The notes under the pieces were generated by a model. That model saw only the letters and a list, made by a program, of their open reading frames with translations, made no database searches and had not been told where the DNA came from. A stretch of 64,000 nucleotides of DNA from Pseudomonadota bacterium (GTDB lineage: Bacteria; Pseudomonadota; Gammaproteobacteria; Burkholderiales; JAKAFK01), in contig JAKAFK010000004.1 of the NCBI GenBank assembly GCA_021817985.1, positions 13,505 to 77,504 of the forward strand, written 5' to 3'. Below, piece by piece: positions 26,783-54,739 of the stretch. A program made the position numbers and the translations under genes. Position 1 is the stretch's first letter; each line of letters opens with the position of its first letter.

Positions 26783-26861
26783 CTTTCTGGTCTCCTAAAG
26801 TTCGCTCATGACATTGAAAACAATGCGGGAAAAACCGCCGTGGGCCACGATCGGCATGCAA

Positions 26862-32639: not shown

Positions 32640-33131
32640 ATGAGACTTCGAGCAGATTCAGATGCCGCGGCAATTCGCCGCTTCCCTGCGCACTATCGGC
32701 CATGGCGCGATGCGCTATTTTGGCTGGCGGTGCTGGCAGCGCCCGTGTTCTGGGCGGGACTGGAACTCCTTACCCATCCGACCGTCGATCCCTACTGGCC
32801 GCTGCACGAACCGCGGCGCTTTGCGCTGGTCGCCCTCGCGTATCCGGTTCTGGAAGAAATCGTATTTCGCGGCATGCTGCAGGAGTGGTTGCGCGAGCGC
32901 TGGCCCAACTTCGGTCCAACGGCCGGCATCACCGGCGCGAATCTCCTCACGAGCGCCATCTTCAGCGCCGCGCACGGTCTCGCTCATCCGTTGCCCTGGG
33001 CGCTCGCCACTTTCATGCCTTCGCTGGTGTTCGGGTATTTCAAGGACAAGAGCGGAACGCTCTCGCAGAGCATCGTCCTTCACATCTTCTACAACGCGGG
33101 CTATTTCCTGATTTTTTGGAATCCCCACTGA
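32640..33131 (+). CDS. CAAX/Abi glutamic-type intramembrane protease, JDVT-CTERM-sorting (MrtJ-like)
   Basis: EEIVFRG, FSAAH and HIFYN CPBP motifs; short form with ANLLTS and PSLVFG; a JDVT-CTERM substrate lies 5 kb away. Confidence 0.8.
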   Translation: MRLRADSDAAAIRRFPAHYRPWRDALFWLAVLAAPVFWAGLELLTHPTVDPYWPLHEPRRFALVALAYPVLEEIVFRGMLQEWLRERWPNFGPTAGITGANLLTSAIFSAAHGLAHPLPWALATFMPSLVFGYFKDKSGTLSQSIVLHIFYNAGYFLIFWNPH

Positions 33132-35147: not shown

Positions 35148-35285
35148 AGTGACTTTTTTCTCGGCTGTAAGTGGGCACCCCGTTCCACTCTAGACCACTG
35201 TGGTCCGGTTCGCGTTATCGCGCAGAATGCGCGAGCCGTCCCTATGGCGCATAGGGACGTCGCAAACGCCCCATTGTTCGGATCA

Positions 35286-35322
35286 AAAGGGAAGGGAGGG
35301 CTTTCGCCCTCCCTTCCCGCTT
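35286..35322 (-). terminator. Intrinsic terminator after the VPLPA-CTERM gene
   Basis: Minus strand GGGAAGGGAGGGC-GAAA-GCCCTCCCTTCCC-TTTT. Confidence 0.85.
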
Positions 35323-35362
35323 GCTTACACCCTCAGCGTCGCGAGGACGCCATGCACGAGGA

Positions 35363-36037
35363 TCAAGACACCTTCCTGCGCCGCGCCACGCCGACGAGGC
35401 CAATGAGCCCCGAGCCCAGCATCCACACCGGCGACGGCAACGGCGTGGGTGCCACCGACGCCACAGCCGCCACGCCATTCAGGGTCCAGACACCCGTCTG
35501 CCCGTTGAACGGACCGCCGACAACCGTACTCCGCCAGTTCATCGTATAGTTGCAGCTGGTGGCCGTACACGCGCTCACGGTTCCGGTCGCCGAACCGCCC
35601 TGGTTGAAGTTGGTGCCGTTCCAGGACGCGAACCAGCTGCTCATGTCCATGGCGATGGTGCTCGCCCCCGTATCGACCGTCCCGGTGGGCGCGGGTCCGC
35701 CGGTGATGGTACCCGTCGGCGAGGTGACCAGATTTTCCGCGGACTGGGCCGTAAACGTGTAGACTGGCGTGCCGAAATAGTTGAAATTAGTGAGCGTTTT
35801 CGCCGAATTCGGCTCCGCGGACGCCGTTGCCGTGCCGCCCTGGTAGGATCCCATAACGATCGGGTCCCCGCCGCCTGCCGTGATCGCGGGAGCCACCGAG
35901 GGCGAGCCCGTCAAAAAGAAGTTGCCCCCGGTGACCGTCAAACTCGTCACGTTCTCAGTGGCCGCATGCGACGCCATGGACGCCACGCCGAAAATCGCGC
36001 CGAGTGCGACGCTCAACAGCTTATGTTTGCCTTTCAT
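35363..36037 (-). CDS. Secreted VPLPA/PEP-CTERM surface protein
   Basis: Signal peptide ..ASHA; tail PTPLPSPVWMLGSGLIGLVGVARRRK. Confidence 0.88.
   Translation of the reverse strand: MKGKHKLLSVALGAIFGVASMASHAATENVTSLTVTGGNFFLTGSPSVAPAITAGGGDPIVMGSYQGGTATASAEPNSAKTLTNFNYFGTPVYTFTAQSAENLVTSPTGTITGGPAPTGTVDTGASTIAMDMSSWFASWNGTNFNQGGSATGTVSACTATSCNYTMNWRSTVVGGPFNGQTGVWTLNGVAAVASVAPTPLPSPVWMLGSGLIGLVGVARRRKVS
35470..36020 (-). repeat. Copy 1 of a duplicated ~550-bp coding segment (copy 2 at ~39630-40190)
   Basis: Shared peptides YFGTPVYTFTAQSAENLV, WFASWNGTNFNQGG and WRSTVVGGPFNGQTGVW; DNA differs mainly at third codon positions. Confidence 0.9.
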
Positions 36038-36152
36038 AGAAAGTCTTCTCCAGTCAGAAAGAGTCAAGAAACGGTCGATTTCTAGGTTGACGTTTTGCAC
36101 GGTCAGCTTTTATGGCTATCGGTTTGAACGCAAGCTGCCGCACGTAGGGTAA

Positions 36153-36280
36153 AGCAACAGGCATGCCACACCCAACACTTCCAAATAATTATCTATAACA
36201 TCATCTAGTTGCAAAATGACAAAGTGGTAACCTCATAGTGCGTTAGAGACATTGGCCAGACGTTGTAAAATTTACTGACA
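36153..36280 (-). promoter_or_regulatory. Sigma-54 promoter, IHF-like site and 17-bp enhancer
   Basis: TGGCAT-GCCTG-TTGC (36154-36168), CATCATCTAGTTG near 36199, and TGTCAGTAAATTTTACA (36264-36280). Confidence 0.78.
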
Positions 36281-36962
36281 CCGTAAGCCATTCAACGGTG
36301 GTTCATCAGACGCTGTTTGCAGCCCTTCGAGGGGCCTCTCGCACCGCCGCCGCTAAGTGGGCGAGGATCGGAACCTCCCTTGCGCAGCAGTGAATCCTAT
36401 CTATTTCGCCACGCGCATTGCCTTCGGCCGCACGCAGTTGTGGGGCTTGTGCGCCTGCGACACACTCTACGCAGGAAAGGGCACCGACGGTTTTGAGGAG
36501 ATGTCTATAAAGCCTGTAAAACGCACCGACACGCGATGGGCCGTACCCATTTCGTCAAGGCAACAGCCCTAATCTGCCTCGATGAGAAAGCCACCACCAT
36601 CCCCAAGACCGAGAGAGATTGCCACCCCGACGCAAGGCGCGCGACGGCAACACTAACCGTCTAAATATCCGTTTCCAAGCCATGGGTATTGCCGCATTAG
36701 AGAAGCACGACGGATTGCGAATGACGTATGGATTGAAGAATCCTGAGGGGGCCTGGCGGGCTCTACTGGGAGCCCTTTGGGCTAAGCGGTCTTGTGAAAA
36801 AGACCAAGGAGAGAATGGCGAATCTCTCCTGGAGCATGGGAACGCTATCGGCCGAATGTCCCGGATCGGGACCACATCTTCGCCGATGGAGAAGGTGGCG
36901 CGAGAGCAACTGGCGGCGCGCGACGACCTGTGTGCACGCGCCCCCTAGGATTGCTCCTGCGC

Positions 36963-37871
36963 TCAACTCCCCGCGCTTCTCGCAGCAGTGGCGAGGGCAT
37001 CGCGGATCGCGGCCGGCGCACCCATGATATTGACGAAACTGTGACTCCCTACCATCGACAGATCCGGAAAATCGATCGCGATGCGGAAGCGCGCGGCCAG
37101 GGCATAGACCTTTGTGCCGTCCACCAGAAGTTCATACGGCAAATAGGGGGTCGACTTGATCGGTTTGAAGTCGATCTGGCTCATGATGTAGCGGTCATCC
37201 ATGTCGCGGTTGCCGCCAGGACCTGCGTTCATGGCGACGCCGAAAAGTGTCTGCTGCGAACTCGGCATGTTGATCTGATAAACCTGGGTCACGCCCCCCT
37301 TGCCGGCGGCCAGGTTCGCCTCAACCGCTTGAACGGCGGCCTGGTGGCTGGGATAGGTCGCGAGCTTGCTCGGGTCGGTGAAATATTCCATCCCGAACAT
37401 GTAATGGTAGTGGCGCAACTGGCTCGCGGTCATCCCCTTGGCCCCATAGGCACGCTCGTCGCCTAGGGCAGCCTCGAGCTTTGCCGCCACGCCTTTGAGA
37501 TCCTTTTTCATGCGGTAGGCATTCGCCATATAGACCGGATTCGTGTACGACACCTGGATGGAATTGCCCACCTGGGTCAGCGCGATGTGCTGGGCGGCGC
37601 CGAACCCTCCCATGGGAGACAGCCCGGCATCGGTCTTCAGCGCCGAATCGGTCACGCAGATGACCGTCGCCCCCGGATAGGGCGTAAACTGACCGGCAAT
37701 GGTGAATCCTTGCTTCTGCAGCGCCGCCTTGGTCTGGGCCACTTTTGCCGCCATGCTGCCTGGCGTATTGGAGGCCAGGATGAACGGCTTCAAGAGTTGG
37801 TCAGCGTGGGCGGTCGCAGTCATGGCGGCAGCGACACCGATGAAGCAGATTTTTTTCAGCGTTCCTTTCAT
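36963..37871 (-). CDS. Uncharacterised periplasmic protein (possibly tandem DUF302-like)
   Basis: Signal peptide ..TAHA, coding-like composition, RBS GGAGAGG; motifs HYHYMFGMEYF, LPYELLV and RFRIAIDFPDL. Confidence 0.75.
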   Translation of the reverse strand: MKGTLKKICFIGVAAAMTATAHADQLLKPFILASNTPGSMAAKVAQTKAALQKQGFTIAGQFTPYPGATVICVTDSALKTDAGLSPMGGFGAAQHIALTQVGNSIQVSYTNPVYMANAYRMKKDLKGVAAKLEAALGDERAYGAKGMTASQLRHYHYMFGMEYFTDPSKLATYPSHQAAVQAVEANLAAGKGGVTQVYQINMPSSQQTLFGVAMNAGPGGNRDMDDRYIMSQIDFKPIKSTPYLPYELLVDGTKVYALAARFRIAIDFPDLSMVGSHSFVNIMGAPAAIRDALATAARSAGS

Positions 37872-37947
37872 GAACCTCTCCTTACATGGCATGGGTGTAC
37901 AAACACTTGGACGTTCCTCACGGCAGCGTGCACGCCGCGCGCGAGGG

Positions 37948-40206
37948 CTACGACTTGCGCCGCCGCCGGCGCGTTAGGTAGCCGACGCTGGCGAGCACCA
38001 TCCCGACCAGAACGGGGTCGAATCCTCCGTTTGGATCAAGGGTACAGCCCCCGCTGCCGCCCACGCCGCCCCCGGCGCCGCCGCTCGTGGTGGTGTTCAA
38101 GGGAATGCCGACCGCAAGGGGATCCACGATCATGCCGGACCCCGGGTCCTCGTTGAGCGGGCCGTTAACCGCAACATTCATGGTGAGCGTCATGCCATCG
38201 CTGGAAATCGTCACCTGATTCGTGATGTCGGTCCACCCGGACTTCGTCACCTTGTAGATCCGGGTCCCCGCCGGCAACGCCGTCGGGAATGTCAGAGTGA
38301 CACCGACTGTGCCGGTGACCGGCTGCGTTGGGCTGCCCACCGTGTAGGTAATGACGCCGTAACGGTAGAAATCGAACCCGGCCGGGCGGGCGGCCGGCGA
38401 ATAGCCGGCTGCCCTAAGATCCGTATCGCTCGGACTCAGCTGGGAGTTCAGCGTCACCGGCGGGGTGGTACCCGAACCGTCGACGGCAACGGTCACCGCC
38501 CCGTGCGGGGTCACTACCGCTCCCGAGCAGGGCACGTCGACGCCGGACGGACCCCCGTTCACGTTGCCGGTCAGGTACAGGGTGTAGGGGATATTGATGA
38601 ACGGTCCACTCGGGACGATTGCGGAGTAGACCAAGGTATAGGGATGGCCGTAGACGCCGTCCCACTGGAATGTGGCGGGGGCGCCGCTGCCCATGGGAAT
38701 CGCCGGCGTCGTGTTCCATGCCACCGTCCAGCCGCTCAGATCCAGGTGTCCGTTGCCATAGTCCGTGACCGGCTTGACCGTATACTCGTAGCCCGGCGCG
38801 CTAAAGAAGCTCCAGGTGTTGTCGATCGGCGTGTTGCTGACGCCCGGCAGACCGGCATAGCCCTGGGTCACGCCGATCTCGATGGGATGGCTTTGCGAAA
38901 TGGTGGTGAATAGTTGCTTCCCGGGAGAGACTTCCATGGCGAATTTCGATCCCGGACAAATCGTCAGGTTATCTCCGGTCGCCGCGCTCAGCACAGGATT
39001 GATTCCGCCGGTGGTCGAGAAGTTGATGGCGGGGGGGGCTGTCAACGGATCGCCCTCGGCATCGGTGGCCCCGGCGTTGAACGTCACCGTATACGTCGTG
39101 CTCTTGTTCAGTCCACTCACCGGGTAGACGAAGGCCATGTCGTCCGTGGTCGTCGGCGTTCCGACGGTGACGCCGCCCGACACGGAAGGGAAGCTTGCGA
39201 CCGTCGACGGATTCATCGGTTCGTTGAAATTCACGGTGATCGTCGAGGTGCTGGGCGAGATGCTGGTGTTTGCCTGCGGCGTCGTCGCGGTCATGGCGGG
39301 CACGAGAGCGGCGGTCACCGTCTCCGTAGGGGGCGCTACAACCGAATCGCCCGAGGCGGTCGTCGCCTGAGCGGCATTGAAGCTCAGGGTATAGCTCTGT
39401 CCGGGCTGCAGGCCGGAGAGCGGGAACGTATAGGTCAGACCGTCCGCGCTGGTGGGCGCGCCGACCGACGGCGAACCGGTCCCGGTGGTGGCGATCGAGA
39501 CAAACCCGGCCGCACTCGTGACCTTTTCGCTAAACGTGACGGAGATGGACGGATTGTTGTAGCTGACGGTGGAGCCGTCGCCGGGCGTCACGGTGGCCTT
39601 GGCCGTCGTCGTCGCGGCAGCGGTCGAAACCGTGCCGTTCAAGCTCCACACACCGGTCTGGCCATTGAATGGCCCCCCGACCACGGTCGACCGCCATGCC
39701 ATCGTGTAGGCGCAAGTCGTCGCACCGTTCGAAACCGTGCAACTGGAGATGGTCCCTGTCGCCGCCCCCCCCTGGTTGAAATTGGTTCCGTTCCACGAAG
39801 CGAACCAGCCACTCATGTCCATCGAGAGGGTGCCCGCACCCGTATCGATCGTCCCGGACGGGGCTTTCCCGCCGGCAATGGTACCGGTTGGCGCGCTCAC
39901 CAGATTTTCGGCGGACTGGGCCGTAAAGGTATAGACAGGGGTTCCGAAGTACTTGAAGTTGGTGAGCGTTTGCGCCGGGTTCGGCTCCGCCGAAGCATTG
40001 GCGGTGCCTCCCTGGTAGCCACCCGTCACGATCGGCTCACCCGGGCCCGCGGTGATCGCAGGATTCACCGTCGGGGACCCCGTCAAATAGAAGCTGCCCC
40101 CGGTGACCGTCAGATTCGTCACGTTCAATACCGCCGCCTGAGACGTCAGGACGACGCTCCCGAAGATCGCGCCGAGCGCGAGGCTTAATGCTTTTTCTCT
40201 CATCAT
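37948..40206 (-). CDS. Large surface protein: N-terminal domain, two Ig-like domains, related internal domain, choice-of-anchor-U-like domain and JDVT-CTERM tail
   Basis: Signal peptide; Ig-like TFSEKV and NFNEPM..L...TTYTVT; NGPLNEDPGSGMIVDP; tail GGSGGCTLDPNGGFDPVLVGMVLASVGYLTRRRRR. Confidence 0.85.
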   Translation of the reverse strand: MMREKALSLALGAIFGSVVLTSQAAVLNVTNLTVTGGSFYLTGSPTVNPAITAGPGEPIVTGGYQGGTANASAEPNPAQTLTNFKYFGTPVYTFTAQSAENLVSAPTGTIAGGKAPSGTIDTGAGTLSMDMSGWFASWNGTNFNQGGAATGTISSCTVSNGATTCAYTMAWRSTVVGGPFNGQTGVWSLNGTVSTAAATTTAKATVTPGDGSTVSYNNPSISVTFSEKVTSAAGFVSIATTGTGSPSVGAPTSADGLTYTFPLSGLQPGQSYTLSFNAAQATTASGDSVVAPPTETVTAALVPAMTATTPQANTSISPSTSTITVNFNEPMNPSTVASFPSVSGGVTVGTPTTTDDMAFVYPVSGLNKSTTYTVTFNAGATDAEGDPLTAPPAINFSTTGGINPVLSAATGDNLTICPGSKFAMEVSPGKQLFTTISQSHPIEIGVTQGYAGLPGVSNTPIDNTWSFFSAPGYEYTVKPVTDYGNGHLDLSGWTVAWNTTPAIPMGSGAPATFQWDGVYGHPYTLVYSAIVPSGPFINIPYTLYLTGNVNGGPSGVDVPCSGAVVTPHGAVTVAVDGSGTTPPVTLNSQLSPSDTDLRAAGYSPAARPAGFDFYRYGVITYTVGSPTQPVTGTVGVTLTFPTALPAGTRIYKVTKSGWTDITNQVTISSDGMTLTMNVAVNGPLNEDPGSGMIVDPLAVGIPLNTTTSGGAGGGVGGSGGCTLDPNGGFDPVLVGMVLASVGYLTRRRRRKS
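39630..40190 (-). repeat. Copy 2 of the duplicated coding segment
   Basis: Same shared peptides as copy 1 (35470-36020), with a 4-codon insertion (VSNG) in this copy. Confidence 0.9.
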
Positions 40207-40398
40207 CTCTTCTCCATCCTATGAGTGCAGCGCGTCCGGGCCCTACCGACGGCGACCTCACCGTCGTCGCGAACCGCGCTACTGCCGGGGGCGTTTACGT
40301 CCTAGCCGATCGCCTACCCGATGAGGGTGTTGCGGGCCGGGTCATGCCAACGCTTCTGTGGGGCAACGCTTAGCCGCGTCAAATGCTCGAATCCGGGT

Positions 40399-41709
40399 CT
40401 AGAATTTAAGCCCATACGCGATCTCCCACTCGTTCTGAAACATCTCCGCCACCGCAGTCACAGGTGTTGAGTTTTCGAAAAGAAGGGTTGCGGTTTGGCG
40501 CTTCTTCTTCGCATAGACCCATGCAAAAGACACCGACGAGTCGGCCCCCATGAAGGAACGCCCCAGCTGATAGGTAGCGCCCAGTGTGTAGTGCGTTTCA
40601 ACGATGCCCGGGGCAAGAAGATTGAACAGCAACTGGCTGTCCGGAATTGGGCTCTTGCCATAGTTATAGCCGGCTCTTAGCGTCAGTTTCCGGTTGAAGT
40701 GATAAAGGAAACCGAGCTTGTAGACGGTCTGGTTCTGCCAACCGAACCCCATGCCGCCATTGGCACCTAGGGATGTCGTATTAATCGTCGCACCCGAATA
40801 GAGGAGAGAGGTCGGACCCAAGTTGCCTATCGAGGGCACGTCCGAATAAAGGATGCGTTCCACATCCAGGGCTGCATCCAGCTTATTGGGAATCACCTTG
40901 ACGGCAACCCCGACCGCATAGTTGGCCGGGACGTCGAAGGCCCCGCCATTGGCAAAAAGCCCCCGGTACTTGGTGAATTTCTGCATGTACTCCTTGGTGG
41001 CGTACGTCGCGCCGAGGCTGAGCCGGTCATCGAGGAAATGCCCGAGCCAGCCCACCCGTGCGCCGAGTCCCCATGCATAGTCGTGCCCCTGATTGGTGAC
41101 GTTATTGGGGTATGCCGACATCGCCGTGAACGCGCTCAGCCCCTGCGCGGCAAAGCGCTGCCCCGCAGGAACCAGCGAGATTCCGAACGATTGCGAGTCC
41201 ACCGGACGCCATGCGACCGTAATCGGGATGAAAAGCTGCACCAGATCGACCCCCAGCTTGCCCCCACCGTTCGGCGTGGTGGAGAAGAAGTTGGTGCTGT
41301 ACGTCGTGTCCATGCCGCCGTTCCCCACCGCAGCGACCCCGAAGGACCACCGGTGGTTGTAGGCGAAAGAAACGCCCATCCCTGGGACCAGATAGGTGTT
41401 GGAGCCGCTCTTGACGCACTCCGCGCCGCCACTGCCGTTAGGACTCCCGTCGTTGAGACCGACTTCCCCCGCGCAACGGCGCGGGTCGAAGACGCCGACA
41501 CCGACGTCGAATCGGGTGCCGACGTCACTCAAGTTTGCTGGATTCGCCGCGGCCGAAATGGAATTCTGGGGGTACGCCACCGCCGCCCCTCCCATCCCGT
41601 CCGCCGCTGTCCCATACCCGATGGCGAAATAACCGTTCGTTGCAAAGGCCGCCGGGGCGGCGAGCCAGGCACCCAACCCTACGAGCGCCCAGTAACGGGG
41701 TTTCCACAT
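40399..41709 (-). CDS. OmpP1/FadL-family outer-membrane channel
   Basis: TNGYFAIGYG...GMGGAAVA..Q...AAANPA plug motif, GNGGMDT, LRAGYNYGKSPI and terminal Phe. Confidence 0.9.
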   Translation of the reverse strand: MWKPRYWALVGLGAWLAAPAAFATNGYFAIGYGTAADGMGGAAVAYPQNSISAAANPANLSDVGTRFDVGVGVFDPRRCAGEVGLNDGSPNGSGGAECVKSGSNTYLVPGMGVSFAYNHRWSFGVAAVGNGGMDTTYSTNFFSTTPNGGGKLGVDLVQLFIPITVAWRPVDSQSFGISLVPAGQRFAAQGLSAFTAMSAYPNNVTNQGHDYAWGLGARVGWLGHFLDDRLSLGATYATKEYMQKFTKYRGLFANGGAFDVPANYAVGVAVKVIPNKLDAALDVERILYSDVPSIGNLGPTSLLYSGATINTTSLGANGGMGFGWQNQTVYKLGFLYHFNRKLTLRAGYNYGKSPIPDSQLLFNLLAPGIVETHYTLGATYQLGRSFMGADSSVSFAWVYAKKKRQTATLLFENSTPVTAVAEMFQNEWEIAYGLKF

Positions 41710-41910
41710 AACCGCGTCTCCCTTCATTCAGGAAAATGATTGCTCCAGCTGGGCAGCCCAATCGCCTGCCCGCCCATGTTTTGCGTTGTCTTGGCCGTCA
41801 AACAGTGCGCTGCCGCAGGCCGCGCCGTTGCCTTGAACGGTGTCACGGCAACGGAGGACCGGCGCGCCACACTGCGGTGAGGCGCTAACGACGGGCTAAC
41901 GTGTTTCGGG

Positions 41911-42537
41911 TTAAATGAACAGGCACACGTCGGATGTCTGCGCCGTCGGCAGGAACGACGCGGCACCCACGTAGTCGGATACCTCCGGGATGAATTCGGA
42001 TCGATCGAAACCGAACAGGTCGACCGTCATCTGGCAGGCAACGAATTTGACGTCTGCCTCAATGCACAGCGTCCGCAATTCCGCGATGTCGGCGACGCCG
42101 ACGTTGCCGATGGTTTTCTTCATCAACGTGGTCGCCAATGCCTCATAACCGGGGATCGCCGCCTGGACGATATTCGGAATGTTCCAGTTGATGGCCCTAA
42201 ACCATTTTGGCCCCATGGGCATTTTCATCGGCATGGCCGGATTGCCTAAGGGGCTGACTTGCGCATCAAAGTTCTTCTTGAGAAGGGTCAATCCATAGAA
42301 GGTGAAGAAAATCGCCGTTTCCCACCCCAGCGCCGCCGCGGTCGACGCCAGAATGAACGGCGGATAGGCCCAGTCGAGCGTGCCTTTGGTGGCGATTATG
42401 GAAAGCTTAGGGACCTTTTTCTCGTTGAGCTCTGCAAGCTTGCGCTCCAAGATTTCGTCAAGCCGCTCCTCGATGCGCGCATCCACGAGGTGCTGCACGT
42501 CAAGAGGGGTCTGGATGGTTTCGGCGCGAGTGGTCAT
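41911..42537 (-). CDS. dsrE2: DsrE2-type sulfur carrier protein
   Basis: LSIIATKGTLDWAYPPFILASTAAALG..FFTFYGL..PLGNPAMPM..ACQMTVDLF..YVGAA..SDVCLFI. Confidence 0.88.
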   Translation of the reverse strand: MTTRAETIQTPLDVQHLVDARIEERLDEILERKLAELNEKKVPKLSIIATKGTLDWAYPPFILASTAAALGWETAIFFTFYGLTLLKKNFDAQVSPLGNPAMPMKMPMGPKWFRAINWNIPNIVQAAIPGYEALATTLMKKTIGNVGVADIAELRTLCIEADVKFVACQMTVDLFGFDRSEFIPEVSDYVGAASFLPTAQTSDVCLFI

Positions 42538-42689
42538 TTAGTACGTCTCCTCGTAGGATGGATCTCTATGCGGTTAACGTTTTTTCACCATAGCACATGC
42601 TTTAGTGTGCATTAGACAATATTGGAACAACTTTCATAGGTGATTAGCGACTCGTCATGGGGTACGCTGGGACAATGCGCTCTAGGACA

Positions 42690-42784
42690 GCAACATTTAT
42701 GCCAAGATCACTACGCCCTTGCAGTTCATGCGGTTATGAATCGTTCGCGAGCGTCCATGACATGTCATGTAAAAATTGGTGACA
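42690..42784 (-). promoter_or_regulatory. Sigma-54 promoter and 17-bp enhancer upstream of dsrE2
   Basis: TGGCAT-AAATG-TTGC (42690-42704) and TGTCACCAATTTTTACA (42768-42784). Confidence 0.78.
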
Positions 42785-42939
42785 TTTCTTGTTCTAATAT
42801 TCGAATTTTATGAATTAGCAGGTTCGCCTTCGATTAGGGCACACGTTCCGCGCGCTGATGGGCAGGGGGATGGGGAGACGATTGGGGCGCAGAACGTGCG
42901 CCGTCGGACGACGCAGTCCTGTGCGATGAGCGACGACGA

Positions 42940-44163
42940 CTAGGGACGGCAGTCGGCGAGGAGGCCAAGCATGTGTTTCGCCAGCTGTTGACGATCGTAT
43001 CGGGGCGCTGCGGCAAGGCAATGCGCCCTGATGGCGCCATAGAGCCGCGGATCGTCCATGAGCCGGGTCAGGGCCGCGTCAAGAGCGGGCGCATCGCCCG
43101 AGGGGAACACGATGCCGACGTTTTCTCGCTCGACGATGCCGGCTGATTCCCCTGGGACGCCGTGCAGCAAGGGGATGCCCATCCCCATCGACTCGAAGAG
43201 TTTCGACGGGATGACGGTTGAAAAAAGCGCGGTGTCACGCAAGTGAATGATGGACACATTCAGCAGCGACCAGTAGCGGGCCACTTCCGCCTTCGGCACG
43301 GAGTCGACGAAAACGACGTTGGCCAGTTGCCTGCGCTGTGCCTCGCGGACCAAGTCCGCTTTGCGAGCACCGTCCCCCAGAAGGAGAAAACGCACGTCCC
43401 CGCGCCGCGCACGCTGGAAGCGCTCGGCCACCTCCAGCACCGTCTCCAGCCCGTGCGCCATGCCATGGGTGCCGATATAGCCGGCCACGAAACACCCTGA
43501 AAGACCGAGCGATCGCGCGAGCGCTTCGTCGCGCATCCGGGGCGTAAAGCGCGTCAGATCGACACCGTTGGTCACCACGGCGATTTTACGGCCGTCGATG
43601 CCGCGCGCCACGAGCCTGCGCTTGAACGAGTGCGTCACGGATACGATGAGGTCCGCCTTCCGGTACAGGAAGCCTTCGATCCGCTCCAGCGCGCGGAACA
43701 CGGCGGAACTTCGCATCGCGCCCACCGCCTTGATCGATTCGGGCCACAGATCCCGCAGTTCGAACACGAAGGGGATGCGTTTCGCGCGACTCACCAGGTA
43801 GGCCGCGCAGGCGGTGAAAAACTGGGGCGAAGTACCGATAACGATGTCGGGTTTTATTACAAACAGGGACGCCACGGTGGCGGACGCCATGAAGCTCGCA
43901 TAATCGAGGCTGCGCCTCAGGAACCCCTCGTTCGCCGTGATATAGCTCCACACGCGGATGACGCGTATGCCCTCCATGTCCTCCGACTGCCACAAGCGGT
44001 TATGGTATCCCTGGAATATTTTGCCCTTCGGGAAATTGGGCGCGCAGGTGATGATCGTGACACGATGTCCTGCCCTGACCCACTCGCGCGCATGCTCGTA
44101 GGTACGGGAAGCCGGCGCATTGACTTCCGGGGGAAAATTGTCGGTAAGAAAGAGAATGTTCAC
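42940..44163 (-). CDS. GT4 glycosyltransferase (WbuB-like)
   Basis: TDNFPPEVNAPASR, PNFPKG, FELRDLWPES, PSKLFESMGMG; GTG start overlaps the upstream stop. Confidence 0.9.
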   Translation of the reverse strand: MNILFLTDNFPPEVNAPASRTYEHAREWVRAGHRVTIITCAPNFPKGKIFQGYHNRLWQSEDMEGIRVIRVWSYITANEGFLRRSLDYASFMASATVASLFVIKPDIVIGTSPQFFTACAAYLVSRAKRIPFVFELRDLWPESIKAVGAMRSSAVFRALERIEGFLYRKADLIVSVTHSFKRRLVARGIDGRKIAVVTNGVDLTRFTPRMRDEALARSLGLSGCFVAGYIGTHGMAHGLETVLEVAERFQRARRGDVRFLLLGDGARKADLVREAQRRQLANVVFVDSVPKAEVARYWSLLNVSIIHLRDTALFSTVIPSKLFESMGMGIPLLHGVPGESAGIVERENVGIVFPSGDAPALDAALTRLMDDPRLYGAIRAHCLAAAPRYDRQQLAKHMLGLLADCRP

Positions 44164-45851
44164 TCGCACCAGTCCAGCCTGAACAGGGCCTGCTCGCCCC
44201 TCATGTGCGTTTCGATACGCGTGGAGGGCAACGACAAGCCAAATTCCGGATGCCAATGAGCCGCCCGCACGGACACTTCGCCGCCCAGCGCTTCCCACCG
44301 CGCCATCGCCCCTGTCGTCTGGACATACCCTCCGCCAGGACGCTGAAAAACGCTGGTCTCCGGATGCAGGTACAGACGTGAGATGGCGCACTGCGCACGG
44401 CCTTCGATGCGATCGTCGATCTCGAGCCGCTGGGACTGGAGCACCCAGCGCCGGCGATGAATCGGGCGCCCCTTCAGGCGACGATAGCCATCGTGCGCCC
44501 CTTCGATGACGATACGGTCAGGCGATTGTGCCACCTCGACGTCAAAAGGATATGCGCGTCTCGCCACCCGAAACGATGCCCATACTTCGGACGAACTCTG
44601 TCCGTCGAGTTCCACCGTATTGTGTGCCGCCGTCGAACGTTCCCACTCCCGCTGCGCGCCCCCGGCATAGCATGAGGTTCCCGAATTGACGAGCAGGCGC
44701 CGGCCATTCACCGACAATTCGAAGCTCAGCACATCGGCGTGCGCGTGCCCGGGCAAGTAATCGGGCCCGACCGGCGCCACATCCGCAATCAACACGGCGC
44801 CATGCTTCTGAACCCGGACGTAACCCGACGCATTCAGCCAGGACACGCCATCGTTCGGCACCGCGACGGGCACATCAAGCCGCCGGGCATAGCGGATGAG
44901 TTCACCGGGCGGTGGGGCAATGCCCATCGCCGCATCGTTGAAGAACGACACCTCGCCGTCCGGGTGGCACATCAGGAGAAGCCAGCGCAACATGCCGGCC
45001 GCGGTGTTGCGCCAGACAGCAATTTCTTGCGCCCAACCGGCAAACGCGCCGGGACAGGCGCACGCAAGATTCACGAGATCCAACATATCTTCGAGCGCAA
45101 TGGCGTGATACATGGGACTGCGCTCGAAGTGCCCGCCGTCCGGGAGAATCTGTTCCGGTACCTCGCGCACCAGAATTTCCATGCCCTGGCGCATCCAGCG
45201 ATCCGCCTCCGGACCAGCAAAGAACGCCCCGGCAAAGACGAGCGCCTTGGCGTTGGCGAAGAGATGATTCCCCAGGAGATGGTACTCGAGGCGTTGCGTG
45301 AGATGGCGCGCCTGTTGCGCGAGGGAGTGCGCCGAGCCGGGCGGGAGCGTGTGGCCGCATGCGGCCCATTTCACCCAGTTGACGATTCTGAGCGACAAGG
45401 GATACGGCTCCCACCCGACGCCTTTGCCCGGCGGATTCTCGGCAATCCAGCGGGCAATTAGCCGTGCATGCGCCGCCGCCCTGCACTCGGCGTCCGCAGC
45501 ATTCAGGTCGTCGAAATAGTGCAGGTTGTAAAGCCAAAGTCTGGCTCGCCCCGGTGCATTCCAGTCAATGGCGCCTTCGAGTCCATGCTCCTCGTTCAGG
45601 AACCGAAAACGCGTTGCCGAAACCATGGCTGCACGCCGCTGCGCAGGACGCGCCCAGACGCCGCGCAAGGGCCTTCGCGGCGGCGCCGGCTGCCCGTCCC
45701 GAACCGGCGCATTGAATCGCGACGACAACCGGCCCCAAATCTGGATGGGCCGCAAATATCTCAAGGTGTGATAGTAAAGGGCAGACCGCCGCCAAAGCGC
45801 ATCCGCTTCCCTTTGCCGTTCGAGCGACTTGGAGTCGCCAGCCGAACTCAT
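44160..45851 (-). CDS. Heparinase II/III-family protein
   Basis: LWLYNLHYFD, EYHLLGNHL, DGGHFERSPMYH, GHAHAD..SFEL, STAAHNT. Confidence 0.88.
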   Translation of the reverse strand: MSSAGDSKSLERQREADALWRRSALYYHTLRYLRPIQIWGRLSSRFNAPVRDGQPAPPRRPLRGVWARPAQRRAAMVSATRFRFLNEEHGLEGAIDWNAPGRARLWLYNLHYFDDLNAADAECRAAAHARLIARWIAENPPGKGVGWEPYPLSLRIVNWVKWAACGHTLPPGSAHSLAQQARHLTQRLEYHLLGNHLFANAKALVFAGAFFAGPEADRWMRQGMEILVREVPEQILPDGGHFERSPMYHAIALEDMLDLVNLACACPGAFAGWAQEIAVWRNTAAGMLRWLLLMCHPDGEVSFFNDAAMGIAPPPGELIRYARRLDVPVAVPNDGVSWLNASGYVRVQKHGAVLIADVAPVGPDYLPGHAHADVLSFELSVNGRRLLVNSGTSCYAGGAQREWERSTAAHNTVELDGQSSSEVWASFRVARRAYPFDVEVAQSPDRIVIEGAHDGYRRLKGRPIHRRRWVLQSQRLEIDDRIEGRAQCAISRLYLHPETSVFQRPGGGYVQTTGAMARWEALGGEVSVRAAHWHPEFGLSLPSTRIETHMRGEQALFRLDWCE

Positions 45852-46936
45852 AAGACGCGCTCAAGCACGCTGACGATGCGCTCCCCCGTCCGGCCGTCCC
45901 AGTATTCCGGGACGCGTCCCGTCTTCCACCGCCCATCGAACACGCGATCCAGCGCCGGCTTGAGCTTCGAGGGGTCGGTGCCGATCAGCTCGTTTGTCCC
46001 CATCGTGATGGTCTCGGGGCGCTCCGTCGTGTCGCGCACCGTCAGGCAGGGCACCCCCATCACCGTGGTTTCCTCGGTGATGCCCCCGGAGTCCGTCAGC
46101 ACAGCCTTCGCATGCTTGACCAGATAATTGAACTCGAAGTAAGGCTGCGGCGCGACCGGACACAGGTTCTCGGGCAACGCACCGATCGCATGCAGCGTCT
46201 TGGCGGTGCGCGGATGAACCGGAAAAACGACGGGAAGCCCTCGGGCGGCGGTGCCGATGGTGCGCAGCCATGCGCTCAGGCGTTCGGGCGCGTCGACGTT
46301 GGCCGGGCGATGCAGCGTGAGCACGAAATACCCGCCGGCGGCAAGGCCAAGTTCGTGCCAGAAGGCTGGCGCACGCAGCCGTTCCCAGTTGAAAAGGAGC
46401 GTATCGATCATGGTGTTGCCGACGAAATGGATGCGATTCTCCTGGACGCCCGAGCGGCGCAAATTAGCATTCGCCGTCTCGCTGGTCGTGAAGAAGAGAT
46501 CGGTGATGGCATCGGTGACCATGCGGTTGATTTCTTCGGGCATTCTCCAGTCTCCGGAGCGAATGCCCGCCTCGACGTGGGCCACCGGCACGCACAGCTT
46601 CTGCGCGGCGATCGCGCACGCCATCGTGGACGTCACATCGCCAACGACCAGGCATAGATCGCTTCGGCTTTCCAATAAGAGAGATTCGTACCCCACCATG
46701 ATGGCCGCCGCTTGACCAGCCTGCGTACCGGACCCCACCTCCAGGTTGACGTGCGGCTCCGGGATGCCCAGTTGGGCAAAGAAATCCCCCGACATGCGGG
46801 CGTCGTAATGCTGGCCCGTATGCACCAGGCGATAGCCCAGGCGATGGTCCGGTCCACGGGCCTCGAGCGCACGGATGATCGACGCAATCTTCATGAAATT
46901 CGGCCGAGCCCCGGCGATGATGTCGATCCTTGTCAT
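45848..46936 (-). CDS. wecB: UDP-N-acetylglucosamine 2-epimerase (non-hydrolysing)
   Basis: GARPNFMK, HTGQHYD, HVEAGIRS, TDSGGITEE, TERPET. Confidence 0.92.
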   Translation of the reverse strand: MTRIDIIAGARPNFMKIASIIRALEARGPDHRLGYRLVHTGQHYDARMSGDFFAQLGIPEPHVNLEVGSGTQAGQAAAIMVGYESLLLESRSDLCLVVGDVTSTMACAIAAQKLCVPVAHVEAGIRSGDWRMPEEINRMVTDAITDLFFTTSETANANLRRSGVQENRIHFVGNTMIDTLLFNWERLRAPAFWHELGLAAGGYFVLTLHRPANVDAPERLSAWLRTIGTAARGLPVVFPVHPRTAKTLHAIGALPENLCPVAPQPYFEFNYLVKHAKAVLTDSGGITEETTVMGVPCLTVRDTTERPETITMGTNELIGTDPSKLKPALDRVFDGRWKTGRVPEYWDGRTGERIVSVLERVL

Positions 46937-47000
46937 GCTTCCCTCATAACCAGAACGATGGCGGGCCACTGCGCAAGGTCGGCAGGCCGCCGATAAGCCG

Positions 47001-49139
47001 TTATTGCTCCGCGCGGGACAACTCGATGGCGATGCGACTCACCTCAAGGATTTCGTCGAAAGGGATGGGCGCGTCGATTCCGTTTCGCACCGACGCCAGG
47101 AAGGCGCCGGCACAAGCCTTCTGCCCTTTGTCCTGGCGCCACAGCCGCATGCGCGAGAAGCCTGACCAGCCAAAGCCTCGCAAAACCCTAAAATTGTCGA
47201 GTTGGAGCACCCGCCCCCCCGCGAAGACCTCGATGCGTTCCTTGGGGAAGGACTTGGGGCCATTGGCGAAGTAATGGACGGTACCGATCGACCCGTCGGC
47301 AAACCGAAGTTGCAAGGTCACGGTGTCCTGGGTCTGCGAGCTCATCCCCATGCGGCTCCAGGCGACGATCCGTTCTCCCGCGAGATGGCGCAGGAGGTCG
47401 ATGAAATGGCAGGCTTCGCCGACGATCCGTCCACCGCCGGTGGCCGCGTCCTGCGTCCAGTGATCCGGCGGGATGGCGCCTGCATTCACCGTCGCAACGA
47501 ACGACTTCGAGCCGGATATGCCCTCCAGCAACGCCTTCATGCGCGCCACCAGGGGGCTGAAGCGCCGATTGAAACCCACCATCACGACGCGCGCGCCGGG
47601 ACCCACACCTTGCACAGCACACTCCGCCTCGATCTCCTCCAGTTCCTCCAGCGTCAGGCAGAGCGGTTTCTCCACGAACACGTGCTTGCCCGCGCGCAAG
47701 GCCGCCACGATCCAGCGGGCGTGGCTGTCGTGGCGCGTGGTGATCACGGCCGCATCGACCAGACGATCGGAGAGCGCATGAAGCGCATCCGTCGTCGTTT
47801 CCTCGAAGCCGAACTTGCGACCGGCGTGAAGCCCGCTTACCCCCGCGCTCGAGGCCACCACGCGAAGACGCGCGCCGGCCGCCTTGAATGCCGGAATAAG
47901 GGCGGCGGTCGCATAGTTTCCCGAGCCGACGAAGGCGAGCGAGGGAGCGCTTCCCTGCGCGGGAGAAATAACGGTCACGCCGGCCAGAGGCACGGTTTGT
48001 CGCCTGACATCCGCATCCGGGCGGCTTTGCGTGTCGGGATACTGCAGCAGAATCCCCAGGGAGAATTCCTGCCCGCCCACCAGTTCATACGCCTTGACCG
48101 CCTCCTCGATGGCAAACCGGTGGGAGATCAAAGGTTTCACGTCAAGGCGCCCGTCGGCCATCATGTCCAGGACGGCTTCTAAGTTGCGACCTTCGGTCCA
48201 GCGGACGAAGCCGACCGGATAATCCTGTCCCTTCTCCTCGTAGTTGGGGTCATAGCGCCCCGGCCCGTAAGAGCAGGACACCTGGAAAGTCAGTTCCTTC
48301 TCGAAAAAATCGGCGCGGGAGAGCTCGAGCCCGGTGACTCCCACCAGCACGATGCGCCCGCGCTTGCGGCACATCGTCGCCGCTTGGTGCATGGGCTCGC
48401 TGCTTTTGGTGGATGCCGTGATGATGACGGCATCCACGCCGCGCCCGCGCGAGAAGCGCTCCGCCGCAGCAAGCGGGTCTTCTCCCGCATGCAGGTCCAC
48501 CACCTCTGCACCGAATGCGCGCGCCAGCCCGAGCTTGCGCGGGTCGAAGTCCAGCCCCAGCACGCGGCAGCCGTGCGCGCGAAGGAGCTGCACGGTCACG
48601 AGCCCGATCAGGCCGAGCCCGGTCACCACCACCGCCTCTCCCAGCGTCGGCTGCACCAGCCGAATGCCCTGCAAGGCAATGGCCGAAAGCACCGTGAAGG
48701 CAGCCTCGTCGTCGCTCACGCCCTTCGGCACCCGCGCGCACAGATTTTGCGGGACCCGGACCGCTTCGGCGTGCTTGCCGTTGGAAACGACCCGATCGCC
48801 CGTCCGCAACGACGCCACGCCGCCGCCGACATCCATGATCCGCCCGACGTTGCAATAACCCAAAGGCAACGGCTGGTCCAGTTTGTTGAATACCGCCTCG
48901 ACGGTCGGCATGAGGCCGTCGGTTCTGATCTTGTCCAGGACCATGCGCACCTTGTCCGGCTGCTGCCTGGCCTTATCGATCCAGTTCGCCTTGCCGAACT
49001 CCACCAGCATCCGTTCCGTGCCGGCCGATACCAGGGTGCGCGACGACCGAATGAGCACCTGCCCGCGCGCCGCTCCCGGACAGGGCACTTCCGCCACTTC
49101 CGTCGCGCCGGTCCTAAGGCTCTGCAAGATTTGCTTCAA
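47001..49139 (-). CDS. Bi-domain oxidoreductase (Zn-ADH-like plus Gfo/Idh/MocA) of polysaccharide clusters
   Basis: SAGTERML, PLGYCNVG, GLGLIG, SYGPGRYD, EKPL, GFNRRF; TTG start with GGAGG RBS. Confidence 0.9.
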   Translation of the reverse strand: MKQILQSLRTGATEVAEVPCPGAARGQVLIRSSRTLVSAGTERMLVEFGKANWIDKARQQPDKVRMVLDKIRTDGLMPTVEAVFNKLDQPLPLGYCNVGRIMDVGGGVASLRTGDRVVSNGKHAEAVRVPQNLCARVPKGVSDDEAAFTVLSAIALQGIRLVQPTLGEAVVVTGLGLIGLVTVQLLRAHGCRVLGLDFDPRKLGLARAFGAEVVDLHAGEDPLAAAERFSRGRGVDAVIITASTKSSEPMHQAATMCRKRGRIVLVGVTGLELSRADFFEKELTFQVSCSYGPGRYDPNYEEKGQDYPVGFVRWTEGRNLEAVLDMMADGRLDVKPLISHRFAIEEAVKAYELVGGQEFSLGILLQYPDTQSRPDADVRRQTVPLAGVTVISPAQGSAPSLAFVGSGNYATAALIPAFKAAGARLRVVASSAGVSGLHAGRKFGFEETTTDALHALSDRLVDAAVITTRHDSHARWIVAALRAGKHVFVEKPLCLTLEELEEIEAECAVQGVGPGARVVMVGFNRRFSPLVARMKALLEGISGSKSFVATVNAGAIPPDHWTQDAATGGGRIVGEACHFIDLLRHLAGERIVAWSRMGMSSQTQDTVTLQLRFADGSIGTVHYFANGPKSFPKERIEVFAGGRVLQLDNFRVLRGFGWSGFSRMRLWRQDKGQKACAGAFLASVRNGIDAPIPFDEILEVSRIAIELSRAEQ

Positions 49140-49437
49140 GTATCCTCCCGCTCGAACAGCGCAGCCGATGGGGCGTATGTCGGAGAACGTCGACTGTAGA
49201 CTTCTGCACGCGCCCGCCGCGATCCTTCCCGTTATAGATGATTTTTCTTGTTTTCTCCGTGATCGCACCTGGGCGACAGCCGGCTCCCGCCCGACACGCG
49301 AGCATGGAAAACGGGCCACACGGGGGCCGGTTAGACGGGAAAAAACCGTCGATATCTGGGTCGGCGCGGGTCGCGCACATTTTCGGAAACGCGCAGGCCG
49401 CAGGGTGCGGCAAGCCGTGTCGCGCCTCGCGCAGCAG

Positions 49438-49524
49438 CGTCGAATTTTTTTACAACGGCGCGCGCGCCCTACGGGCCAATACCTTTCCTATCCGCGGATT
49501 AGACCATCGGGCCCGGTTCTTGCT
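49438..49524 (+). promoter_or_regulatory. 17-bp enhancer and sigma-54 promoter
   Basis: CGTCGAATTTTTTTACA (49438-49454) and GGGCCC-GGTTC-TTGC (49509-49523). Confidence 0.7.
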
Positions 49525-49594
49525 GTCCCCGTCTACGCGCGCCGCGGGAGGCGCTGCGCTTCCAAACACATCAACTAAACGGAGAAGACAAGTC

Positions 49595-50344
49595 ATGACA
49601 AGAAGACGGCTGGGAACGAAGAGGATCTGCACGATCGCCCTAATGTGTGCCGCAGCGGGAGGGACGGCACAGGCTCACGCATCAACCGCCATAGGCCTCG
49701 ACCCGATCCTGAATTTCAATTTCAATGGCAGTTTCAGCATGTACGATTCGACCGGCGCATTGGTCGGCGGGGACAATACGCTTTCCGGAAGCATACATCT
49801 GGACACCGCAACCTTCGGCGGCACTGCGACCATGTCGGATCCATCGCCGTTTTTCGGCTCCCACTGGTACGCGCATGATATCCAAATATCGGCCACGCCC
49901 GACCTCGCCAACGGCAGTTTTTTAGCGAACTCCCACATGCTGTTCGACTGGGGACCGGCAACGACGGCGACCTCGTGCGGTGTTGCGGTCTGCGATTACA
50001 GCATCTACACCCAATTCCAGATTGCGCCTACGGTCAATTTGCACCTTGCGTCGTGGACCAGCCTGACAAGCGGCACGCCGTTCAACGTCACCACCACCGA
50101 CGCGGACGGCGACGGGATTCCCGGAAACCAGATCACGTACGGTCCATTCAAGGGATTCTCGCCCGCGTTTGACGGCACCGCCACGTTTCAAGCGATAAGC
50201 CTCGGCTACATCGCGAATGACAACATACCGCCCGTCGATCCTACCCCTCTGCCAGGCACGGCGCTGCTCCTCGGGTCTGGGCTCCTGGGCATGGTGAGCG
50301 TCGCCCGCACACGCAAAGCTTCGCTGAGGCGCGCAAGCGCGTAG
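49595..50344 (+). CDS. Secreted PEP/VPLPA-CTERM surface protein
   Basis: Signal peptide ..AQAHA, DADGDGIPG, tail PTPLPGTALLLGSGLLGMVSVARTRK. Confidence 0.85.
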   Translation: MTRRRLGTKRICTIALMCAAAGGTAQAHASTAIGLDPILNFNFNGSFSMYDSTGALVGGDNTLSGSIHLDTATFGGTATMSDPSPFFGSHWYAHDIQISATPDLANGSFLANSHMLFDWGPATTATSCGVAVCDYSIYTQFQIAPTVNLHLASWTSLTSGTPFNVTTTDADGDGIPGNQITYGPFKGFSPAFDGTATFQAISLGYIANDNIPPVDPTPLPGTALLLGSGLLGMVSVARTRKASLRRASA

Positions 50345-50562
50345 TCCCCAACGGGAGCGTGTCGCCATCCACAACACGCCCCAAAGGGCCCCATTTTTTT
50401 CCGCTGCGCCCCCTATGCTGCCTCGGGCGGGGCGGTCTCCCGGGCGTCCTCATCTCTCCGAGCGGCGGCTTGAACATCTTCGCTTTTGACGTCCGATTTC
50501 TCGCTTGACGCGACGACATGGCCGCGACAGATGACCTAATAGGGAGCATGTCAACAACATGC

Positions 50563-50657
50563 CGTCGGCTTTCTTTACACAATCGAGCGTCATCCTCTGC
50601 ATCATTATATTAATACTCTCTAAATCATGCAGATAGATGGCTGGCATTTTTTTTGCT
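50563..50657 (+). promoter_or_regulatory. 17-bp enhancer and sigma-54 promoter
   Basis: CGTCGGCTTTCTTTACA (50563-50579) and TGGCAT-TTTTT-TTGC (50642-50656), with an AT-rich IHF-like spacer. Confidence 0.78.
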
Positions 50658-50742
50658 GATCGATAGCGGCCAATTTAATCCGGCATGGTTAGGACGCGCA
50701 AATGCGACTGTAAGAGTCACCACTGGAGAACAGGAGAGCGCA

Positions 50743-51423
50743 ATGATCAGAGAATGGATGACAACGAGAAGACGTTGGGAGGCAATCGCGACGTGCAGTT
50801 TGTGCCTGTTCGCGGCCAAAGCGCATGCCTCGTCGGCGTTCGGCACCCTGCCCGTCGGGCAGGTCGATGTCGGCACTTCGGCGGTGGCCGAATGGAAACA
50901 CGGGAGCCACCCGATCCTCGCCGACTGGGACATGTTTTCCGACCGCTTCGCCTCCCGTATGGAGCATCGCGAAGCGGAGCGGATCGCTTACGACACGGGC
51001 ATGCCCATCGGGGATCTCGCGGAAGGCAGGTGGAGCTTGCTCAAGCGCTGGACAACATGGAGTATGCCATGCCATAGCGAAGATTGCCGAGGTGACGCCG
51101 ACACGCGCACCGGAACCGCCTCGTGGCTTGCGTGGGACCTCGCGCGATGGAACGGCATGCCTGACGAGGCGCGCTTCGCATTTCGCCTGGCGCAGAGTCG
51201 ATGGGAGCACCTGTCGGATGATCCGCTTGCGCGTCCCCCCATCCGATGGCTCGTCCCAGGATGGCTCAGCGGCCGGATCACCGTGGGACTTGTGAGGCTT
51301 GACCGGATTGCCGACCGATCACCTTCCGTCGACCCCGTCCCGATCCCTGAGCCGCTCACGCTATTGGGTTCAGGACTGCTTGGACTGGTCGGATTCGCGC
51401 GCAGGCGCCGCCCACGCCCTTAG
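50743..51423 (+). CDS. PEP-CTERM protein with Trp-rich core
   Basis: Signal peptide ..AKAHA; tail PVPIPEPLTLLGSGLLGLVGFARRRR. Confidence 0.78.
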   Translation: MIREWMTTRRRWEAIATCSLCLFAAKAHASSAFGTLPVGQVDVGTSAVAEWKHGSHPILADWDMFSDRFASRMEHREAERIAYDTGMPIGDLAEGRWSLLKRWTTWSMPCHSEDCRGDADTRTGTASWLAWDLARWNGMPDEARFAFRLAQSRWEHLSDDPLARPPIRWLVPGWLSGRITVGLVRLDRIADRSPSVDPVPIPEPLTLLGSGLLGLVGFARRRRPRP

Positions 51424-51532
51424 GGTATCTTCCGCTGTCCGCCTGTGGGCGGACAGCACCGCTCGGGCACCCCCATCAAACAACGGCTGGCCTCTGGTTT
51501 GGCGAGCCATTCGCGTCGCCACAGGCAGGCGA

Positions 51533-54662: not shown

Positions 54663-54739
54663 CAACTTCCCCTCCAGTATTTTTGCCATACGCATGTCCA
54701 ATCCTTGCATCCGGCCGGCGGCCCCGAATGCGCGCACCG

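Follow-up and report, generated by a model that had tools for sequence, protein, structure and literature searches.

We analysed a 64,000-nt stretch (the window) of the genome of a Pseudomonadota bacterium of the order Burkholderiales (GCA_021817985.1, contig JAKAFK010000004.1, positions 13,505 to 77,504), which very probably carries four sigma-54 promoters that depend on an enhancer and belong to the published PEP-CTERM-box type. Three of them (P1, P3 and P4) stand before genes for PEP-CTERM-class surface proteins, and the fourth (P2) heads a unit whose first gene is dsrE2. The logic of enhancer and sigma-54 promoter has been known since 2006, and the only new point is the copy before an operon in which dsrE2 comes first and a surface protein is encoded as well. 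We put this dsrE2 unit forward as a new candidate target operon of a known regulatory system, on the basis of motifs, spacing, orientation, gene identities and paralogy read from the sequence.

The upstream element is a 17-nt box with the consensus YGTC-N7-TTTACA. A preceding sequence-only reading had listed four copies, all of which we find at the positions and on the strands it gave: the proximal copy at P1 (36264-36280, minus strand; TGTCAGTAAATTTTACA), the copy before the dsrE2 operon (42768-42784, minus; TGTCACCAATTTTTACA), the copy before PEP-CTERM-class gene 2 (49438-49454, plus; CGTCGAATTTTTTTACA) and the copy before PEP-CTERM gene 3 (50563-50579, plus; CGTCGGCTTTCTTTACA). The number has to be corrected to five exact matches, the addition being a distal box in the P1 intergenic region (36515-36531, minus; TGTCGGTGCGTTTTACA). 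It lies 234 nt upstream of the proximal copy and has no sigma-54 element behind it, the best GG-N10-GC string between the two boxes scoring 5/11. All five boxes are intergenic 17-mers that end in TTTACA and carry GTC at positions 2-4. Five exact matches in 64 kb compare with 0.07 expected, and none of 100 shuffles reached five. Since the pattern had been written from the sites themselves, tests less dependent on it were added. Only 10 TTTACA hexamers exist on the two strands of the window, and six of them have GTC at the same offset; the sixth exact GTC-N7-TTTACA, at 60673-60688 (minus), is within a coding region and without a sigma-54 element. With up to one mismatch, GTC-N7-TTTACA occurs 15 times against 3.5 expected (0 of 100 shuffles). 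When weight matrices were built from four of the five copies, each being left out in turn, the omitted copy ranked 5th or 6th of 127,968 positions. In 1.14 Mb of other dsrE2 loci, described below, GTC-N7-TTTACA appears twice and never beside a sigma-54 element, as against six times in the window. The dsrE2 box itself is the second-best matrix match in the window (score 27.0) and lies between the stop of a glycosyltransferase gene at 42940 and the dsrE2 start at 42537. Its last two bases (CA) are overlapped by a perfect 14-bp palindrome (CATGACATGTCATG, 42750-42767, minus) that has no counterpart at the other boxes and may be the site of a second regulator. The sixth-best matrix match (TGTCGGGTTTTATTACA, 43845-43861, plus; score 18.7) lies on the opposite strand within the glycosyltransferase gene, some 1.1 kb before the dsrE2 promoter, and may be either chance or a remote enhancer copy.

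Downstream of four of these boxes, on the same strand, stand the predicted -24/-12 promoters. P1 (36153-36168, minus; TGGCATGCCTGTTGCT; predicted transcription start near 36142), P2 (42689-42704, minus; TGGCATAAATGTTGCT; predicted start near 42678) and P4 (50642-50657, plus; TGGCATTTTTTTTGCT; predicted start near 50668) are perfect matches to TGGCAY-N5-TTGCW, and all three stand behind boxes. P3 (49509-49524, plus; GGGCCCGGTTCTTGCT; predicted start near 49535) is weaker: its GGGCCC-N5-TTGCT keeps the GG and the GC with two mismatches to TGGCAC, and its score of 9/11 is common to 11 other sites in the window. Box and promoter are separated by 95 nt at P1, 63 nt at P2, 54 nt at P3 and 62 nt at P4, which bears out the claim that the boxes share one orientation and lie some 55-95 bp upstream of a GG-N10-GC element; from promoter to start codon the distances are 115, 151, 70 and 85 nt, respectively. 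The promoter scan had an internal positive control in the glnA-ntrB-ntrC cluster (21984-26877), whose sigma-54-type promoters upstream of glnA (26862-26877; TGGCACATTTCCTGCT) and ntrB (24520-24535; TGGTACGCATCTTGCT) share the highest score in the window with P1, P2 and P4. Taken by themselves, sigma-54-like strings show no enrichment there (5 against 3.9 expected; 16 against 19.1 in a second scan). Their pairing with the box is another matter: of the 10 TTTACA hexamers, four have one of the 16 GG-N8-TTGCW elements 55-96 nt downstream on their own strand, and random placement gave a mean of 0.08 such pairs and at least four in none of 20,000 trials. The signal is this pairing, not the sigma-54 strings alone. 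A MAFFT alignment of the four promoter regions revealed no similarity beyond the box and the sigma-54 motif, and we therefore reject a recent duplication of the promoter region and do not regard the P2 region as a recently copied fragment. Two other explanations of the promoter regions were tried and set aside. Sites for integration host factor (WATCAANNNNTTR, up to one mismatch) number 13 in the window against 11.6 expected, with none in any spacer, the P1 and P4 spacers being merely AT-rich (61% AT in a window of 64% GC). TTTACA as the -35 hexamer of a sigma-70 promoter fared no better: 35000-43200 yielded two sigma-70-like sites against 2.5 expected, neither using a box as its -35, and 49200-51700 yielded none.

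The 17-mer corresponds to motif 1 of Haft et al. (2006, BMC Biol 4:29; PMC1569441), and the shared enhancer pointed out by the sequence-only reading was thus already known. The published account describes a 17-nt motif 1 with TTTACA at its 3' end, sometimes repeated, followed after 62.8±10.6 nt (range 32-92, from the 3'-most copy) by a 17-nt motif 2 that fits the -24 GG/-12 GC sigma-54 consensus and whose end is a mean of 71 nt (range 23-221) away from the start codon downstream. It places the site upstream of 99 of 167 proteobacterial PEP-CTERM genes and in all 13 PEP-CTERM-positive Proteobacteria examined, mentions "A few additional sites" before other genes and none within coding regions, predicts that PrsR binds it, and reports for the site a phylogenetic profile that matches PrsK, PrsR and PrsT. 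The window fits this description in the length of the box, its TTTACA end, its orientation, a spacer of about 63 nt, the GG/GC site, the intergenic position, the mostly single-gene PEP-CTERM units, the repetition of motif 1 at one promoter and the presence of a PrsT-like gene, and the claim that these are enhancer and sigma-54 promoters of the PEP-CTERM type is upheld accordingly; identity with motif 1 was judged by the written description (length, 3' hexamer and spacing). Three spacers (54, 62 and 63 nt) lie within the published range and the 95 nt of P1 outside it, whereas the distance to the start codon is inside the range at all four promoters. The window differs in that the downstream gene is PEP-CTERM-class at three of the four promoters and dsrE2, in a four-gene unit, at the fourth, in having XrtD as its exosortase and tails of the VPLPA type, and in that prsK and prsR are absent from it. 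An experimental parallel is pepA of Aquincola tertiaricarbonis RN12 (PMC9850573), whose transcription depends on RpoN1, as measured by quantitative reverse-transcription PCR in an rpoN1 mutant, and starts from a mapped site at a TGGCAC/CTGCTT -24/-12 promoter for which the authors note a predicted upstream enhancer; the same paper cites PrsK/PrsR-dependent floc formation in Zoogloea resiniphila. Both cases combine a PEP-CTERM gene, a -24/-12 promoter, a predicted enhancer and an exopolysaccharide (EPS) locus with prsT or, here, a prsT-like gene. The Aquincola account has experimental support and reports no sulfur-metabolism target, whereas the present system is known from sequence alone. The NtrC-activated glnA and ntrB promoters of the window work on the same principle, an upstream-bound enhancer-binding protein activating RpoN holoenzyme at -24/-12, but with another activator and another upstream sequence.

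The genes behind P1, P3 and P4 share a common tail architecture (P-x-P motif, transmembrane helix and basic cluster). Such a tail is found in only three open reading frames (ORFs) of the window and all three follow a box, in agreement with the claim that three boxes precede PEP-CTERM genes. Gene 1 (35363-36037, minus) forms a single-gene unit with a strong terminator-like hairpin at 35289-35318 and encodes a secreted protein with a VPLPA-type tail (PTPLPSPVWMLGSGLIGLVGVARRRK). Its likely start is the Met at 36037, which yields a signal peptide, and it scores 25.0 bits against the cutoff of 25.35 for TIGR03370 (VPLPA-CTERM), with an additional PepA C-terminal match. Gene 2 (49595-50344, plus; PEP/VPLPA-CTERM class) encodes 249 aa with a signal peptide and the tail PTPLPGTALLLGSGLLGMVSVARTRK; its profile matches are all sub-threshold and all at the tail (VPLPA-CTERM 13.8 bits). 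Gene 3 (50743-51423, plus; tail PVPIPEPLTLLGSGLLGLVGFARRRR) passes both TIGR02595 (17.5 bits, cutoff 16) and PF07589 (20.8, cutoff 20.7).

As had been claimed, the first gene after P2 and its box is dsrE2 (41911-42537, minus), which encodes 208 aa and scores 217.2 bits against NF047629, a narrow margin over the equivalog cutoff of 210, and 152.6 bits against PF13686. It is followed on the same strand by a gene for a FadL/TodX-family outer-membrane channel (40399-41727, alternative start 41709; PF03349, 78.9 bits), a gene for a JDVT-CTERM surface protein of 752 aa (37948-40206; NF033191, 46.5 bits against 27) with Big_5/CopC-like and choice-of-anchor U domains, and a gene for a secreted DUF302-like protein (36963-37871; 302 aa from Met 37871). 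The last has no Pfam or NCBIfam match, and its label is an Atlas lead only, the nearest clusters being DUF302-containing (score 0.97, TM 0.97) with DUF302 on about 30% of their members. A terminator-like hairpin at 36807-36830 (minus) ends the unit; the other terminator-like sites on the minus strand between 36963 and 42940 are all inside the fadL or JDVT-CTERM coding regions, and none falls in the gaps between the four genes. From P2 to the ATG of dsrE2 runs a leader of 151 nt with no other ORF, no Rfam match and a fold that does not stand out (z = 0.55). We accordingly rejected the idea that this leader holds an RNA element or attenuator, the whole of 35000-51500 giving no relevant Rfam match (one chance microRNA). 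From the single strand, the sole non-coding hairpin after the last gene and a leader without other ORF or RNA family, we infer that the four genes are co-transcribed from P2.

This setting is unusual for dsrE2. The rhd-tusA-dsrE2 genes are described as a sulfur-relay cluster of sulfur oxidizers in a paper that also states that the function of DsrE2A "remains unclear" (PMC11094781). The window protein belongs to the same DsrE2 family and is 60-72% identical to homologues beside a rhodanese or a SoeABC-like enzyme, but its gene lacks the usual synteny, whether rhodanese and tusA or sulfur-oxidation genes of the sHdr or rDsr type. It lies instead behind a sigma-54 promoter in an EPS/exosortase cluster, with a GT4 glycosyltransferase gene upstream and the fadL-like gene downstream; an 80-aa ORF between these two has no Pfam match. 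The same-strand EPS cluster in which the unit is embedded includes an ADH/GFO fusion, wecB, a heparinase II/III-like gene and the GT4 gene.

For comparison we fetched 80 loci with DsrE2 homologues 60-72% identical to the window protein, 1.14 Mb in total. Four were too short upstream (L010, L013, L043 and L048), and the upstream scan covered 500 nt before dsrE2 in the other 76. Neither the box, even relaxed, nor the full sigma-54 consensus was found there in any of the 76, and across the 1.14 Mb the full sigma-54 consensus occurs at only three sites, none near dsrE2. The link between box and dsrE2 is thus, as far as these sequences go, lineage-specific among the examined loci. A fadL homologue follows directly 3' of dsrE2 in 33 of 72 untruncated loci and lies upstream in one more, mostly in Betaproteobacteria (for example L006, L009, L014, L016, L018, L019, L022-L024, L026, L028, L029, L033 and L034), and in 10 of the 80 loci a DUF302-like homologue comes after fadL. 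In several betaproteobacterial loci the module follows soeABC-like genes (molybdopterin oxidoreductase, Fe-S subunit and DmsC-like anchor), and the gammaproteobacterial loci have a rhodanese before dsrE2. None of the 80 loci contains a counterpart of the JDVT-CTERM gene, the PEP-CTERM genes, the glycosyltransferase or mrtJ. Given that the JDVT-CTERM gene is absent from all of them, with fadL and the DUF302-like gene adjacent in 10, it looks inserted into an older module. In a quick tree the window DsrE2 sits on a long branch (0.42) inside a clade otherwise without fadL linkage, a placement that is unsure with this method; L002, the closest DsrE2 by the tree, has a housekeeping context of mnmA, acnB, an epimerase and a TetR-family gene. 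A regular expression for PEP-CTERM tails gave seven matches in the loci, two of which we judged to be genuine VPLPA tails (L017, 12373-13026; L074, 9525-10292). These genes lie about 1.8-2.0 kb downstream of dsrE2, with other ORFs between, in two sister gammaproteobacterial loci from metagenome-assembled genomes, and have neither a box nor a sigma-54 site upstream; their proximity to dsrE2 is possibly a coincidence.

We propose that the 17-nt box acts as an upstream activating sequence at each promoter, with two copies at P1, and that it would be bound by a response regulator of the NtrC family, which we predict to be PrsR (or one of its close paralogues) in the form phosphorylated by PrsK. 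From about 90-130 nt upstream of the transcription start (box centres at about 89-130), the activator would loop to RpoN holoenzyme at the -24/-12 element, and this contact would drive open-complex formation. P1, P3 and P4 would thereby express single PEP/VPLPA-CTERM surface-protein genes, whose products are predicted substrates of the XrtD exosortase of the locus. On the most economical reading of P2, the dsrE2-fadL-DUF302 module, conserved in other sulfur oxidizers, would have gained a surface-protein gene and a PEP-CTERM-box promoter in this lineage, and would then be induced as a whole unit along with the matrix and aggregation programme. The inferred parts of this proposal are which activator acts, the dependence on RpoN, the four-gene transcript and the physiological link to sulfur.

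Several observations weigh against it. The -24 element of P3 is weak, the P1 spacer is 3 nt longer than the published maximum of 92, and only one of the three "PEP-CTERM" proteins passes a curated hidden Markov model cutoff. The dsrE2 box is not conserved in any of the 76 loci, although these relatives are at most 72% identical and none is close to this organism. Long gaps inside the dsrE2 unit (about 184-202, 192 and 76 nt) mean that internal promoters may exist, and no terminator was found between 42940 and 42784, which makes read-through from the upstream glycosyltransferase genes possible. Since prsK, prsR and rpoN are not among the genes of the 64 kb, the activator is a prediction, and since the exosortase is of type XrtD instead of XrtA and the PrsT-like protein falls below its cutoff, the cognate regulator could be a Prs paralogue.

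The rival that survives best accepts P2 and its box as functional but has them serve the JDVT-CTERM protein, with dsrE2 and fadL as passengers and no meaningful coupling of sulfur to aggregation; this is a real possibility, if a somewhat doubtful one. Over residues 3-191, the JDVT-CTERM protein shares 76% identity with PEP-CTERM protein 1 (189 aa, E 2e-95), and this paralogy, between two genes that both stand behind boxes, provides an ordinary reason for a box at the dsrE2 unit. The apparent insertion of the JDVT-CTERM gene into an older module points the same way, as does the lack of a recognisable box or credible sigma-54 promoter directly upstream of that gene, whose upstream region does not align with that of gene 1. 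The position of P2 is harder to reconcile with this idea, as two genes and 2.3 kb separate it from the JDVT-CTERM gene downstream, and a promoter acquired for that gene would be expected beside it. Under sigma-54 control, moreover, dsrE2 and fadL would be co-induced anyway, so that regulatory coupling would remain. Of the claim that sulfur trafficking is tied to the floc programme, what holds is the box and P2 before dsrE2; the tie itself is less secure, because the JDVT-CTERM paralogue alone could explain the box and none of the 76 other loci has one. Two observations on this unit deserve mention in their own right. A single N-terminal domain of about 190 aa carries two different tags in the window, VPLPA/PEP-CTERM at 35363-36037 and JDVT-CTERM, in a longer protein, at 37948-40206. 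A near-box (CGTCGGTGTCTTTTGCA, 40522-40538, minus; matrix score 15.1) lies within the 3' end of fadL, and a TGGCAT without the -12 GC (40344-40349, minus) follows it at a distance of 172 nt, between fadL and the JDVT-CTERM gene; together they could be a decayed or weak internal promoter.

A second question is which activator binds the box. No prsK or prsR was found in the window, as had been claimed, and the only enhancer-binding protein and kinase pair is NtrC/NtrB of glnA-ntrBC. The protein is an NtrC equivalog (TIGR01818, 704.5 bits; 353.9 bits against the PrsR model, cutoff 502.6), and NtrC was rejected as the activator of the boxes. The third component of the Prs profile is represented by a PrsT-like TPR protein (52281-55319, minus; TIGR02917) that scores just below the cutoff (296.1 against 312.2). 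The exosortase (56388-57974, minus), with a fused EpsI domain, is of the VPLPA-CTERM type XrtD (TIGR04152, 556.2 bits, cutoff 400) and reaches 161 bits with the XrtA model, whose cutoff is 208. NCBIfam names PrsK and PrsT as XrtA-system proteins and TIGR02915 as "PEP-CTERM-box response regulator", tying the PrsR-box system to XrtA, yet here the local exosortase is XrtD and the promoters bear a PrsR-type box. A sigma-54 activator other than PrsR, such as a paralogue for XrtD/VPLPA-CTERM and perhaps also for MrtJ/JDVT-CTERM, would suit the XrtD assignment, the NCBIfam naming and the sub-cutoff TPR protein. We nevertheless think it unlikely, as the length, 3' hexamer and spacing all agree with those of the motif 1 associated with PrsR, and the published survey describes that motif in every PEP-CTERM-positive proteobacterium it examined (PMC1569441). 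Finally, it is very improbable that the dsrE2 box and P2 are a non-functional relic or a chance pairing, with read-through or a different promoter accounting for the expression of dsrE2: all 76 other loci lack the arrangement, the leader of 151 nt lies about 2 standard deviations above the published mean of 71 nt (PMC1569441) and the unit is not set off by a terminator from the EPS genes upstream of it, but the box is an exact consensus match and second-best in the window, the -24/-12 element is perfect with a spacer at the published mean, random placement makes chance pairing very unlikely, and the promoter regions are alike only in their two motifs, which argues against a copied fragment.

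The remaining features of the window concern the surface and its sulfur chemistry. Both parts of the JDVT-CTERM/MrtJ sorting system are present and above cutoff, MrtJ being an intramembrane protease of the CPBP family encoded at 32418-33131 (plus; NF033192, 104.8 bits against 75), and the paralogous cargo described above would go to two sorting enzymes, XrtD and MrtJ, encoded within the same 25 kb. Genes of the EPS locus at 33318-35147, 59969-61087 and 44160-45851 encode two sulfotransferase-domain proteins, one of them TPR-fused, and a heparinase II/III-like protein, a combination that suggests a sulfated polysaccharide. The adenosine 5'-phosphosulfate reductase genes aprBA are at 11163-13755.

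The dsrE2 operon brings together a sulfur-relay protein, a channel of the FadL type and a paralogue of a PEP-CTERM protein that bears the JDVT-CTERM tag instead. If the proposed promoters work as described, one regulator may coordinate the cargo of two sorting systems (XrtD and MrtJ), and its programme may reach into sulfur handling in a sulfur oxidizer. In the literature searched we found no mention of DsrE2 together with FadL, and the conserved dsrE2-fadL pair may mark an uptake route for hydrophobic sulfur. It is conceivable, though in our estimate improbable, that the Prs/sigma-54 aggregation regulon has recruited dsrE2-fadL-DUF302 as a path by which hydrophobic sulfur, either elemental sulfur or polysulfanes, would pass from the envelope to the cytoplasm. 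The FadL-type channel would cross the outer membrane and DsrE2 would be the acceptor inside, so that matrix and adhesin production would be induced at the same time as the uptake of particulate sulfur. If true, this would give DsrE2 a testable function, and a regulon associated solely with surface proteins would gain a metabolic arm.

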